Source of the DNA: Escherichia phage ELT1
Length of the DNA: 64,000 nucleotides
Sequence record: MZ892903.1
Strand: one strand, 5' to 3'
Shown here: positions 48,090 to 56,783 of the stretch, piece by piece
Layout: every line of letters begins with the position of its first letter
How positions within the stretch are numbered: the stretch's first letter is position 1
Translations under genes and position numbers: made by a program
Notes under the pieces: model-generated
What the model saw: only the letters and a program-made list of their open reading frames with translations
What the model was told of the DNA's origin: nothing
Databases searched by the model: none

Positions 48090-48592
48090 TTAAAAATATT
48101 TTTTAAAACTCATCATAACTTTATCATCAACATCATTATCAATCTGTGCTACAAGGTAAGATGACAGTTCTACTTCTTGTGGCGCGGATTGAACATTATC
48201 AGAATTAAGATATTCACGAATCCAAGGATACGGATGTTTAACCGGAGCATCAGTAATTGGGCATGGAAGACCACACTGTTTCATACGAGATACAGTTAAG
48301 TAATCAATAAAGCTCCACATGCTATTTGTATTTAATCCAGGAACATCACCATCTTTAAATAAATGAACTGCCCAGTCTTTTTCTTGGCGGTTGACTTCCA
48401 TAAAAATATCAACTGCTTCTTGTTCACACTCTTGGGCAATTTTAACCCATTCATCACCATCAGTGCCAAGTTGAAGTTGACGAATAATATATTGGGTGCC
48501 TTTAAGGTGAAGCTGCTCGTCACGAGCAATGAACTTCATAATCTTGGCATTACCTTCCATGATTTCCATATTCTTGTGGAAGTTAAAGGTAC
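48090..48592 (-). CDS. nrdB: ribonucleotide reductase small subunit NrdB, exon 2
   Basis: Encodes ...MEGNAKIMKFIARDEQLH... (class Ia R2 ligand region); 3' splice site inferred. Confidence 0.8.
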
Positions 48593-49683
48593 CGTTATGT
48601 TCGATTGAGCTCGCTAATTCTCAACCCGTTCTCTTATGAACTGCTACATATTACTATGCAGACCAGACTATATCACAATCCCAGAGGGATTCTCCCCATT
48701 TCGAGTCGCTTGACCCTACGTCCGAAGACTAGTCGTTGAACCTTGCTTTGCAATTGTCGCCGTGCCATCGTTTATATGTTGATGGTGATAAATCTTTCTT
48801 ATCACAATATGGACAATTCAATTGAATTCTATTTGGATTTAATTTACATCTGTCATTATGTTTTAGATAAAATCCAGGACCTTTACCAATGTGACCGCAG
48901 AAATCACATGTGATTTCTTTTTGTGCAGGATGGGTCCCGTTCTTAACCATTTCTAATGTTTTTGCTGATGTTCTTTTCTTATGGTCTTCTGACAAGAAAT
49001 GATGTGAACCATCATTTACCCGTTTTGATTGAGTTTCTGACTGCATTTTACCACCGCAAAATACATGAGTACCTTCTTTTATAGCTGCAATATTGCGTTC
49101 TTTAACTTTTGCAATATGCTCAGCTTGTTGAAAATTATGTATACCTAATGCAACTCTATTTAAATTAGATTTACGCTGTATTTCACCGTCTAAAAGATGA
49201 AATGTACCATTTTCTATCTTAGATTTAATAGAGGCAATATTTTTAGCTCGTACTTCAGGGATATTAAAAATCTGGATTTCTCTAGATTTTGCAGCTTTAG
49301 AAGCTAATTCAGAAATTTCTTCAGGAGAATATTTCATTCTAAGCTTTATAGCATGACAAGCCTGGTAATCTTTTTGAGCTAAATGTATATCATAATGTTC
49401 CTGTATAGAAAGGCACATCAAATTATCTAAATCATTATTTTCACGGTTACCGTCTTTATGATGGATTTCGTATGTTCTTCCATCAGAATCTTTAGGTATA
49501 GGTCCGTTAGCATCTATCCAAATTTTTCTATAGTTCAATTGTGCATCCTCTTAAAAGTATAATCATATTTATATTATACTAATTAAAGGTGCAAGCAAAA
49601 CCTTGGCTGCTAGTTTTCCTATAAAGGACTTTCCAGCAATTAAAGGAGTTTTCGATAAACGTTACCGTTTAAAGGCGCATTTT
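48593..49683 (-). ncRNA. group I self-splicing intron in nrdB (1091 nt), boundaries inferred
   Basis: In-frame stop right after exon 1; conserved core elements shared with td intron (cagactatatc..., cgtttcgagtc.cttgaccctac); splicing at the inferred sites creates a Cys codon and a continuous R2-like sequence. Confidence 0.7.
48729..49538 (-). CDS. intron-encoded HNH homing endonuclease (I-TevIII-like, full length)
   Basis: 269 aa, motif YEIHHKDGNRENNDLDNLMCLSIQEHYDIH; TTG start after AAGAGGA. Confidence 0.8.
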   Translation of the reverse strand: MNYRKIWIDANGPIPKDSDGRTYEIHHKDGNRENNDLDNLMCLSIQEHYDIHLAQKDYQACHAIKLRMKYSPEEISELASKAAKSREIQIFNIPEVRAKNIASIKSKIENGTFHLLDGEIQRKSNLNRVALGIHNFQQAEHIAKVKERNIAAIKEGTHVFCGGKMQSETQSKRVNDGSHHFLSEDHKKRTSAKTLEMVKNGTHPAQKEITCDFCGHIGKGPGFYLKHNDRCKLNPNRIQLNCPYCDKKDLSPSTYKRWHGDNCKARFND

Positions 49684-50359
49684 ACGCAAAAGATACATAA
49701 AAACGAATAGCTTCTAAGGCATTAATAACGTGTAAACAGAGGTAAAGAGACTTCATTAAAGCACGTTTAGCTTCGGCTTCTTGTTTAATAGCTCGGTTTA
49801 AACGAAAGTCGGCATCAGGAGATTCTTTAGCTAGTTCTACAAATTCTTTAGCATTTTCCCATTCACGGGTTTTAACCAAGACATCATCATAATAGCGACC
49901 GATAGATTCAGCACGTTTCATGATAGCTTCATCTAATACAATCTCATCAAATACCTTCGATGGATCAGTATAAAGATTTCGCATGATATGAGTATATGAA
50001 CGGCTGTGAATAGTTTCACTAAAAGTCCATGTAGCAACCCATGTATCAAGACTTGGGTCTGAAATTAATGACATAAGTACTGCAGACGGTGCACGACCCT
50101 GAATGCTATCTAGAAGTGATTGATACTTCAGGTTATTAGTAAAAATATCTTGCTGATATTGAGGAAGCTTGTTAAATTGTGCAGCATCCATCATCAAGTT
50201 TACTTCTTCAGGACGCCAGAAAAAACTGATCTGCCGCTCAATGAGTTCTTCAAATACTCGATGTCGTTGAATATCATATCGAGCTAAACCTAATCCAGAA
50301 CCAAAGAACATCGGTTCATTCAAAACATCAACTGGATTTGTATTAAAAACTGTACTCAT
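49684..50359 (-). CDS. nrdB: ribonucleotide reductase small subunit NrdB, exon 1
   Basis: 225 codons ending ...ALEAIRFYVSFA. Confidence 0.85.
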
Positions 50360-51054
50360 TTAGAATCCTTAAATTTACATTTATCATAATGCCATCTTAA
50401 AGCATTGCCTTTATTAACTTTCTTACCACAGTGCGGGCAAGGTGGATACTCTGCTCCTTGTTTAGTTCTCAAAGAAATCAAATCACGGGTTTCTTTAGTA
50501 TGAGGAACATCTCTTGTCGGAGAAATTGTACCATACATTGGATTAAGCACGCCGACTTTAGCAGCAGCTATATTCTTTTTAGCTTCTTCAGTTTTAGGCT
50601 TTCTCATCTTTTTCTTAGTTTCTTCGCTTTTAGCCCTTCCTTTGGTTGCCGCCGATATTTTGTGTTTGGTTTCTTCTGTTAAACGCAGACCTGTTTTCGC
50701 TTTTGACATTTTCAGTCTCGTTTCTTCAGAAATGACCGTACCTTTGCGAAATTGTGAATTTAACTTCTTTGCATGGGCATATATCTTAGAATGAACTTTA
50801 TAATGACGTTTCTTAGTTCCTTTCATATTGCACATCATGAAAAATGCGAATATAACAGATTTTACCGGATAAATCTTTGATAAAATAGCATGCGCTATAA
50901 AATGTTCTCTGGCTGTTAATTCAACTAAATTTTCCTTATCATCAGAACCTCCCATACATCTAGGGATTATATGATGTGTCTCTTTATATTCTGATAAAGA
51001 TTCCCGAGCCTGAGCTCGGGAAATTAGGTCATTATAGATTTTTTGATAATTCAT
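50356..51054 (-). CDS. mobE: free-standing HNH homing endonuclease (MobE-like) between nrdA and nrdB
   Basis: 232 aa, motif THHIIPRCMGGSDDKENLVELTAREHFIAH, C-terminal CPHCG zinc motif. Confidence 0.8.
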   Translation of the reverse strand: MNYQKIYNDLISRAQARESLSEYKETHHIIPRCMGGSDDKENLVELTAREHFIAHAILSKIYPVKSVIFAFFMMCNMKGTKKRHYKVHSKIYAHAKKLNSQFRKGTVISEETRLKMSKAKTGLRLTEETKHKISAATKGRAKSEETKKKMRKPKTEEAKKNIAAAKVGVLNPMYGTISPTRDVPHTKETRDLISLRTKQGAEYPPCPHCGKKVNKGNALRWHYDKCKFKDSK

Positions 51055-53874: not shown

Positions 53875-54186
53875 TTACACCGCCATTTTTCCTTTCAAGA
53901 CACCGTGGGATTGATAATCTTTGAGAACGAAATCTTTAGGCCTGAGTTTAAGAATGTATTCCAATTGTTCTTTAGTAGAAAGATAGCGGAATTTATAAGG
54001 CAATCCGCCTATTACCAGTTCACATAGTTCTTTAGGCTCACGACGCAAAATTTCTTTACATTGTTCTACGTGATTCATATAGATATGAGTATTACCACCA
54101 GAAAATATCAAATCTCCTGGAATAAGATTACACATCTTAGCTACAATATGAACTAACGCAGCATATGATGCAATGTTGAACGGTAG
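53875..54186 (-). CDS. td: thymidylate synthase, exon 2
   Basis: Encodes LPFNIASYAALVHIV...KGKMAV; the intron's last three nucleotides read ATG. Confidence 0.9.
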   Translation of the reverse strand, partial: LPFNIASYAALVHIVAKMCNLIPGDLIFSGGNTHIYMNHVEQCKEILRREPKELCELVIGGLPYKFRYLSTKEQLEYILKLRPKDFVLKDYQSHGVLKGKMAV

Positions 54187-54333
54187 CATTATGTTCAGAT
54201 AAGGTCGTTAATCTTACCCCGGAATTATATCCAGCTGCATGTCACCATGCAGATCAGACTATATCTCCAACTTGTTAAAGCAAGTTGTCTATCGTTTCGA
54301 GTCACTTGACCCTACTCCCCAAAGGGATAGTCG

Positions 54334-55071
54334 TTAGGCATTTATGTAGAACCAATTCCATTTATCAGATTTTACACGATAAGTAACTAATCCAGACGAA
54401 ATTTTAAAATGTCTAGCTGCATCTGCTGCACAATCAAAAATAACCCCATCACATGAAATCTTTTTAATATTACTAGGCTTTTTACCTTTCATCTTTTCTG
54501 ATATTTTAGATTTAGTTATGTCTGAATGCTTATGATTAAAGAATGAATTATTTTCACCTGAACGATTTCTGCATTTACTACAAGTATAAGCAGAAGTTTG
54601 TATGCGAACACCGCACTTACAAAACTTATGGGTTTCTGGATTCCAACGCCCGTTTTTACTTCCGGGTTTACTGTAAAGAGCTTTCCGACCATCAGGTCCA
54701 AGTTTAAGCATCTTAGCTTTAACAGTTTCAGAACGTTTCTTAATAATTTCTTCTTTTAATGGATGCGTAGAACATGTATCACCAAACGTTGCATCAGCAA
54801 TATTGTATCCATTAATTTTAGAATTAAGCTCTTTAATCCAAAAATTTTCTCGTTCAATAATCAAATCTTTCTCATATGGAATTTCTTCCAAAATAGAACA
54901 TTCAAACACATTACCATGTTTGTTAAAAGACCTCTGAAGCTTTATAGAAGAATGGCATCCTTTTTCTAAATCTTTAAAATGCCTCTTCCATCTCTTTTCA
55001 AAATCTTTAGCACTTCCTACATATACTTTATTGTTTAAAGTATTTTTAATCTGATAAATTCCGCTTTTCAT
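54334..55071 (-). CDS. intron-encoded GIY-YIG homing endonuclease I-TevI
   Basis: 245 aa beginning MKSGIYQIKNTLNNKVYVGSAKDFEKRWKRHF. Confidence 0.9.
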   Translation of the reverse strand: MKSGIYQIKNTLNNKVYVGSAKDFEKRWKRHFKDLEKGCHSSIKLQRSFNKHGNVFECSILEEIPYEKDLIIERENFWIKELNSKINGYNIADATFGDTCSTHPLKEEIIKKRSETVKAKMLKLGPDGRKALYSKPGSKNGRWNPETHKFCKCGVRIQTSAYTCSKCRNRSGENNSFFNHKHSDITKSKISEKMKGKKPSNIKKISCDGVIFDCAADAARHFKISSGLVTYRVKSDKWNWFYINA

Positions 55072-55105
55072 AAATACCTCTTTAAATATAGAAGTATTTA
55101 TTAAA
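55072..55105 (-). promoter_or_regulatory. I-TevI upstream region: late-promoter-like AATAAATA and hairpin sequestering the GAGG SD
   Basis: minus strand ...TTTAATAAATACTTCTATATTTAAAGAGGTATTTATG; arms AAATACTTC / GAGGTATTT. Confidence 0.5.
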
Positions 55106-55202
55106 GGGCAGTCCTACAATTTAGCACGGGATTGTCTACTAGAGAGGTTCCCCGTTTAGATAGATTACAAGTATAAGTCACCTTATACTCAGGCCTCAAT
55201 TA

Positions 55203-55750
55203 ACCCAAGAAAACATCTACTGATCGTTGATACCACTGCAAATCCAAATATCCATTACGCACATTAAACTGATAAAACATATGACAAGGCGGTAATGACA
55301 TATATTTAAGTTCAGCTGGATTCCACGCAGAAACAATTTGACGCCTATCATTCGGCAGTTTTTTAATACGATCAACAACTTCTACAATTTGGTCTACACC
55401 GCCAAAATCACGCCATTGTTTTCCATAAATTGGACCAAGTTCACCGCTATGGTATCCTAAATCTTTTGCTTGATTTTCGTAATTTTCATCCCAGACTGTT
55501 TTGCCTTGAATTAATGAATCATGCTGAATTAATCGCAAATCATTGACATTTGTGCTTCCCGATAAAAACCATATTAGCTCAGCAATGCAAGCTTTCCAGG
55601 CGAGCTTCTTAGTCGTTACTGCAGGAAAACCTTTAGTTAAATCCCAGCGTAATTTAGTACCGAACAAAGCAATTGTTCCTGTGCCTGTTCGGTCATCGGT
55701 TTCATAACCGTTTTCCAGGATATCTTTAATTAAAAATTGGTATTGTTTCA

Positions 55751-55751
<1 letters not shown>
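55203..55751 (-). CDS. td: thymidylate synthase, exon 1
   Basis: Start at ATG 55751 (MKQYQFLIKDI...; track start is upstream TTG); 183 codons; ends ...QRSVDVFLG at 5' splice site. Confidence 0.9.

Positions 55752-56783
<1,032 letters not shown>

Follow-up and report, generated by a model that had tools for sequence, protein, structure and literature searches.

An RB3-type nrdB group I intron with an intact I-TevIII reading frame in Escherichia phage ELT1

The nrdB gene of Escherichia phage ELT1 is almost certainly interrupted by a group I intron of the RB3 type, with a T-even type ribozyme (containing P7.1 and P7.2) and an intact I-TevIII reading frame carried in the loop of P6a. The element itself is already known, and the RB3-type nrdB intron is well characterised. 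The sequence analyzed was a 64,000-nt stretch of the ELT1 genome (MZ892903.1), hereafter the window, and all positions given are window positions. The window is a segment of a Tequatrovirus (T4-like) genome, and its best 24-kb matches, with ~96-97% identity, were to HY03, JEP6 and the RB3 group. The present analysis established where the intron begins and ends, how it folds, how far it is identical to RB3, and that its ORF is intact, motifs included; splicing, cleavage positions, mobility, and promoter use are taken from the RB3 and T4 literature.

In comparison with the nrdB intron of phage RB3 (X59078, KM606994; Eddy & Gold 1991; Robbins et al. 2007, PMC1865063), the ELT1 intron was found identical at 1088 of 1091 nucleotides (99.73%). 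The three differing nucleotides all fall within the ORF, one of them producing the amino-acid change D23Y and the other two being synonymous. Common to both phages are the insertion site, the 1091-nt length, the ribozyme, the position of the ORF, its TTG start and 269-aa length, the associated promoter, Shine-Dalgarno sequence and hairpin, and the gene order nrdA-mobE-nrdB-denA-rnlA.

Intron boundaries and the predicted spliced nrdB product

The split nrdB and its intron lie on the minus strand. The N-terminus of NrdB begins an ORF that spans 50359..49682 and closes with ALEAIRFYVSFA, followed by TAA, while a second ORF with the C-terminal half of NrdB terminates at 48090. A preliminary description of this DNA, made from the letters alone, had noted that exon 1 ends in RFYVSFA followed by an in-frame TAA, and the minus strand indeed reads CGT TTT TAT GTA TCT TTT GCG T/AA at this place (a slash marks the splice site here and below). 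The splice sites had been deduced there from a protein alignment and the U/G rule. To place them by DNA, the locus was aligned with those of RB3, T4, and PD112 and with the uninterrupted nrdB of phage RB32. The intron-less RB32 allele produced a single alignment gap, which corresponded exactly to window 48593..49683, the same 1091-nt insert that had been described. Across the site, RB32 reads GCA TGT ACC and the window reads GCGT/AAAAUG...AUAACG/GTACC, so that no shifted placement of the gap recreates the junction. The splice sites are thus fixed by the RB32 DNA, and they also show the U.G pair of P1 at the 5′ site and a terminal G at the 3′ site: the last intron nucleotide is G, and the 3′ end reads CAUAACG, ending at 48593. 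The resulting gene structure is as follows.

49684..50359, minus strand: nrdB exon 1, 676 nt, with the 3′ end GCG T; boundary from the RB32 intron-less allele
48593..49683, minus strand: group I intron (1091 nt) that begins with the first A past the splice-site U and closes with its terminal G (omega-G), 48593
48090..48592, minus strand: nrdB exon 2, 503 nt including the stop codon, beginning GT ACC TTT AAC

Through in silico excision of 49683..48593, GCG T is joined to GT ACC, which creates a TGT (Cys) codon, as had been predicted for splicing after a T and after a G, and yields a 392-aa NrdB; the predicted ligated junction in the mRNA is TATCTTTTGCGT/GTACCTTTAAC. The spliced protein matched Pfam Ribonuc_red_sm (PF00268) with an E-value of 1.6e-36, and aligned with Escherichia coli R2 (PDB 1piy) over residues 3-388 in one unbroken alignment (E = 7.6e-125), in agreement with the earlier assignment to the class Ia R2 consensus. 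The Cys formed at the junction is conserved, with FAC/TFNF here and FAC/SFAF in E. coli R2. Judged from these alignments, splicing would give a complete beta subunit (NrdB/R2) of class Ia ribonucleotide reductase. An intein was also considered as the nature of the insert, and was ruled out by the in-frame TAA at the junction, the further stops, and the position of the HNH ORF in a different frame from exon 1.

Beside the splice site, exon position −2 (window 49685, a G on the minus strand) was found to be G in 7/7 intron-containing alleles, where it pairs with C7 in P1, and a synonymous A occupies this position in RB32 (GCA versus GCG), the one intron-less allele inspected. Exon co-conversion during homing could account for the G at exon −2, and so could selection for P1 pairing.

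The ribozyme fold and its compensatory changes

The conserved helices of a group I core were located on both sides of the ORF, in two segments.

49591..49687, minus strand: 5′ ribozyme segment with P1, P2, the 5′ strand of P3, P4, P5, and the 5′ strands of P6 and P6a (helix map and Rfam alignment of the ORF-less copy)
48593..48751, minus strand: 3′ ribozyme segment with the 3′ strands of P6a and P6, J6/7, P7, P7.1, P7.2, and the 3′ strand of P3 (helix map)
48593..48751, minus strand: the same segment, continued, with P8, J8/7, P9, P9.1, P9.2, and the terminal G

In P1, the exon sequence GCGU (49687..49684) pairs with the internal guide GCGC (49678..49675, intron G6-C9), placing a U.G pair at the splice site, and this pairing is kept in seven intron copies. 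The loop of P2 is GUAA, and the P7 pseudoknot is formed by GACUA (48734..48730) and UAGUC (48670..48666). An unconstrained minimum-free-energy fold of a window construct from which the ORF had been deleted recovered P1-P6/P6a, P7.1, P7.2, P8, P9, P9.1, and P9.2.

To evaluate the fold across phages, 74 base pairs from P1 to P9.2 were written out and scored in eight intron copies. All 74 proposed pairs are canonical in the window, the P7 pseudoknot included, and pair disruptions appeared only in the copies of other phages. Double compensatory changes were found in seven helices, and P7 was invariant among the scored copies.

P2: three different pairs (SG1, S16, DCP80)
P5: one pair (SG1, DCP80)
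P7.1: two pairs (pYD6-A)
P7.2: three pairs (pYD6-A, DCP80)
P8: three pairs (pYD6-A)
P9: one pair (T4, SG1, DCP80, pYD6-A)
P9.2: two pairs (DCP80)

The copy of pYD6-A entered this comparison with its 3′ half only, as the 5′ core of its intron could not be reliably aligned. The preliminary description had named the absence of an intron fold in this interval as evidence that would speak against an intron; the canonical pairs, the minimum-free-energy fold, and the compensatory changes show instead that such a fold is present.

A covariance-model search had likewise been suggested as a check, and its outcome was divided. At the gathering threshold, Rfam returned 0 hits in the whole 64-kb window, and a permissive scan of 48400..49900 matched the group I model RF00028 over 48644..48884 only, at 33.9 bits (gathering score 50; E = 1.5e-6), with the 5′ half of the model mis-threaded into the 3′ end of the ORF. 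On their own, these scans would nearly amount to the missing fold named in the preliminary description; the window falls below the gathering score because the 810-nt ORF sits in the P6a loop. The natural ORF-less copy of phage PD112, in contrast, scored 68.6 bits against the same gathering score (E = 2.3e-17), and this copy equals the window over 304/304 nt, lacking 48758..49542 and differing by a 2-nt indel at 49567..49568. The gathering score was therefore reached by proxy, through the sequence of the identical PD112 copy, and not by the raw window.

The Pseudoalteromonas phage pYD6-A (NC_020849.1, our locus L010, 2428..2587) is a marine member of the Schitoviridae, and its intron interrupts a gene annotated ‘ATPase’, given as a joined CDS and containing an internal ORF. 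The 3′ part of this intron showed 86.5% identity over 87 nt to the P7′-P9.2 region of the nrdB intron, with P7.1, P7.2, and P8 retained through compensatory changes, and it matched RF00028 weakly (23.4 bits, E = 0.0019). As far as the aligned part goes, pYD6-A has a close relative of this 3′ ribozyme module, in a gene and a phage family that are both unrelated.

Since all three differences from RB3 fall in the ORF, the ribozyme parts of the ELT1 intron are identical to those of RB3. Splicing of the T4 and RB3 nrdB introns has been shown experimentally. The T4 nrdB intron is called self-splicing, with Eddy & Gold 1991 cited (PMC2988022, PMC2790892). Guanosine-dependent autocatalytic splicing of the ELT1 intron is probable. 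In the proposed reaction, the group I core would form in the nrdB pre-mRNA, an external guanosine would attack after the exon U of the P1 U.G wobble, and the freed exon 1 would then attack after the terminal intron G, by which T/GT would be joined as a Cys codon and the normal 392-aa R2 would be encoded.

The I-TevIII reading frame and its expression signals

The ORF occupies intron positions 146-955, inside the loop closed by P6a (5′ strand 49598..49591, 3′ strand 48751..48743). The end of the reading frame (the last ~8 codons and the stop) overlaps the 3′ strands of P6a and P6, J6/7, and the 5′ strand of P7, the stop TAG taking its first two bases from the end of P7 and its third from the start of P7.1. 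The ORF and its upstream signals are listed below.

48729..49538, minus strand: I-TevIII ORF, 269 aa, TTG start, with the HNH motif at residues 26-48 and zinc fingers at residues 211-231 and 242-263
49546..49552, minus strand: Shine-Dalgarno sequence AAGAGGA, with 7 nt between it and the TTG start codon
49566..49573, minus strand: match to the T4 late-promoter consensus TATAAATA, in the hairpin loop
49542..49593, minus strand: predicted hairpin pairing 5/7 Shine-Dalgarno bases of the endonuclease ORF

A 269-aa HNH ORF had already been recognised in the intron, and here its frame (49538..48729) matched Pfam HNH_3 over residues 4-48 (6e-13). The label ‘I-TevIII-like’ given to it was right about the relation, but too cautious: the protein is identical to that of RB3 (CAA41802, AIT72961) at 268 of 269 residues, with D23Y as the sole difference, and by this identity the ORF can be named I-TevIII outright. 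When the I-TevIII sequence was searched against the PDB, no match was obtained at E ≤ 0.1. The RB3 enzyme drives homing of its intron and is active as a dimer; its catalysis depends on H26, H27, N39, and H48, and its DNA binding on C211/C214 and C242/C245, in two CX2CX12-13HX3C zinc fingers (PMC1865063). The four catalytic residues, and C211/C214/H227/C231 and C242/C245/H259/C263 of the two fingers, are all present in the ELT1 ORF. As in RB3, I-TevIII would accordingly combine a catalytic HNH domain and, C-terminal to it, a domain with two zinc fingers that serves DNA binding and dimerisation. The I-TevIII target sequence was found in intron-less relatives such as RB32, and in a mixed infection double-strand-break repair from intron-containing genomes would copy the intron in.

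D23Y results from a G-to-T difference from RB3 at window 49472 and lies three residues before the catalytic H26. The Y23 protein was found identical in phage JK45, and at least 12 further records, including phiD1, vB_EcoM_112, and AV121, match it at the identity level, differing only at residue 1, where M had been entered in the query for the TTG start. An intact and presumably mobile form of the intron had been proposed in the preliminary description. The full-length ORF bears out the first part, and mobility has been demonstrated by experiment for the RB3 copy (PMC1865063); the ELT1 copy with Y23 is probably active as well.

The main alternative is that the intron splices normally and D23Y cripples the endonuclease, leaving a stagnant intron like that of T4, which would be kept only by vertical descent or by mobilisation in trans through mobE. 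In its favor, D23Y is the only amino-acid change from the characterised RB3 enzyme and is close to the catalytic H26, for T4, homing in trans of a defective nrdB intron through MobE has been documented (PMC2790892), and an intact-looking mobE ORF lies 5′ of nrdB in ELT1. Nevertheless, the I-TevIII ORF is full length and unbroken by frameshifts or stops, both remaining differences from RB3 are synonymous, all residues proven essential by mutagenesis are intact in the Y23 protein, and the spread of this unchanged protein over JK45 and the further records at the same level is the pattern expected of an active, spreading allele. With an intact ORF and a widespread allele, a stagnant copy is unlikely, and the reading of an RB3-type intron with an intact I-TevIII is preferred. 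It is conceivable, though we would give the idea little credence, that D23Y changes cleavage relative to RB3, or that I-TevIII and the 232-aa MobE form a two-endonuclease cassette in which each is a backup for the inheritance of the other; what speaks for these ideas is co-occurrence.

Regarding expression of the ORF, TATAAATA at 49573..49566 is the sole match to the late-promoter consensus within ~8 kb on either side, and the hairpin around the ribosome-binding site (RBS) has a predicted energy of −14.9 kcal/mol (z = −4.08), with 0/200 shuffles folding as well. For the three T4 intron ORFs, the RBS is described as masked on early and middle read-through transcripts and free on late ones, which start inside the hairpin (PMC2988022). 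By analogy, and on the basis of the motif match and the predicted fold, we infer the same late-promoter use and RBS masking in ELT1: on early and middle read-through transcripts the hairpin would pair the Shine-Dalgarno sequence, and late transcripts, starting just downstream of TATAAATA, would be translatable because they would lack the hairpin's 5′ arm.

Shorter versions of the same intron were found at the same site. The T4 nrdB intron (X04140, AF158101) is 598 nt long with a 97-aa ORF annotated as defective, in a T4 nrdB CDS that spans 1765 nt, which agrees with the statement in the preliminary description of an intron of about 600 nt with a truncated endonuclease. It has the same insertion site and ribozyme as the ELT1 intron, with 98.8% identity over the shared 598 nt, and equals the ELT1 intron minus two single bases and the following tract.

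48984..49474, minus strand: 491 nt absent from the T4 intron, comprising ORF codons ~22-185 and the whole HNH motif

The T4 ORF accordingly keeps the C-terminal ~86 residues of I-TevIII, and, according to the literature, the defective T4 intron does not move by itself and relies on MobE for mobilisation in trans (PMC2790892). The alignment with the T4 and RB3 nrdB loci that had been proposed as a check thus confirmed the intron, as an almost identical copy of that of RB3 from which the T4 form differs by a large deletion. ORF-less mini-introns are also present at the same site in vB_vPM_PD112 (304 nt) and DCP80; the PD112 ribozyme is identical to that of ELT1, and its mini-intron is without the whole ORF, the promoter, and the Shine-Dalgarno region (window 48758..49542). 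The unusual context of the DCP80 intron, with a DNA primase 200 nt upstream, proved to come from a run of N in that assembly, in which nrdB exon 1 extends as far as the gap.

Neighboring elements, distribution, and annotation

Identity between ELT1 and RB3 was 91.3% in exon 1 and 96.0% in exon 2, compared with 99.7% in the intron. An intron closer to RB3 than its exons are is the usual signature of an element that moves between genomes faster than these diverge. The identical tract next to the intron extends 49 nt upstream and 16 nt downstream, and identical flanks this short argue neither for nor against recent homing out of an RB3-like donor.

The differences of exon 1 from RB3 (over 49687..50359) are strongly clustered, with 33 of the 59 falling in the first ~150 nt of the gene, which adjoin mobE, and the 49 nt adjoining the intron are identical to RB3. 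Between nrdA and nrdB, the mobE position is occupied by the following ORF.

50356..51054, minus strand: free-standing HNH + NUMOD3 endonuclease ORF in the mobE position, 232 aa

In ELT1 this is one uninterrupted 232-aa frame. Relative to the window, the T4 reference (our locus L004, 140..840) carries two additional bases, an A within an A-run near 50705 and a C near 50619, and T4 has mobE (141 aa) and nrdB.1 (83 aa) because these two extra bases split the same sequence; in the text of PMC2790892, neither ‘nrdB.1’ nor ‘frameshift’ appears. The ELT1 mobE allele is of the T4 type and not of the RB3 type, as the RB3 mobE (243 aa) is alike over the first ~60 residues and unrelated over the rest. 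MobE-dependent recombination maps to the 5′ region of T2 nrdB (PMC2790892). Since this recombination maps to nrdB's 5′ region and ELT1's mobE is T4-type, the cluster in exon 1 may mark the boundary of a mobE-linked co-conversion.

The td (thymidylate synthase) gene was found to be split as well (53875..55763, minus strand), by an intron at ~54190..55199.

55763..55200, minus strand: td exon-1 ORF, ending VDVFLG
55071..54334, minus strand: td intron ORF, a 245-aa GIY-YIG protein beginning MKSGIYQIKN, which looks like I-TevI
54189..53875, minus strand: td exon-2 ORF

RF00028 matched the td intron at 54235..54465 with 42.5 bits (E = 4.3e-9), below the gathering score, and this is a second ORF-bearing group I intron of the window that the Rfam gathering scan missed. 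The Rfam group I model at its gathering threshold therefore misses ORF-bearing phage introns, here both nrdB and td. The T4 td intron with I-TevI follows the same design as the nrdB intron, namely a group I intron in a gene of nucleotide metabolism with a looped-out endonuclease ORF, and differs in the gene, the intron sequence, and the type of endonuclease, which is GIY-YIG and not HNH.

Among 50,697 phage records, 748 matched the nrdB locus, and 128 of these contain the intron. At least 84 cover at least 80% of it, representing the full-length form, while the shorter forms are the T4-type deletion, with ~56% coverage, and introns devoid or nearly devoid of the ORF (29-39%); an uninterrupted nrdB junction was found in several hundred records. 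Many deposited genomes list two nrdB CDSs at this locus (nrdB_1 and nrdB_2, or ‘x2’) together with a ‘hypothetical protein’.

Such records could be read to mean that splicing does not occur and that an endonuclease cassette splits nrdB into separately translated pieces, as in the ‘genes in pieces’ ribonucleotide reductase of Aeromonas phage Aeh1, and exon 2 does hold an ATG-initiated 159-aa ORF. However, a complete group I core with covariation flanks the endonuclease ORF, contrary to genes in pieces, and a start codon is absent at the exon-2 boundary. The first ATG lies 8 codons past the junction, so that a separately translated exon 2 would lose the conserved CTFNFHKN. Moreover, the exons are joined in the curated RB3 and T4 records, and the two-CDS entries are ORF-caller artefacts. 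Separate translation is thus extremely improbable, and interruption of nrdB by a spliced RB3-type intron is retained. An assembly or chimera artefact, for which the higher RB3 identity of the intron than of the flanking exons might be cited and nothing else specific was found, has a negligible probability, since the same architecture and boundaries recur in at least 84 independent phage records and such an excess of intron identity is expected of a homing element.

The two-CDS nrdB records are a systematic annotation error. The correct annotation of the ELT1 locus is an nrdB CDS on the complement joined from 49684..50359 and 48090..48592, with I-TevIII inside the intron, and apart from this correct annotation the significance of the finding is small.
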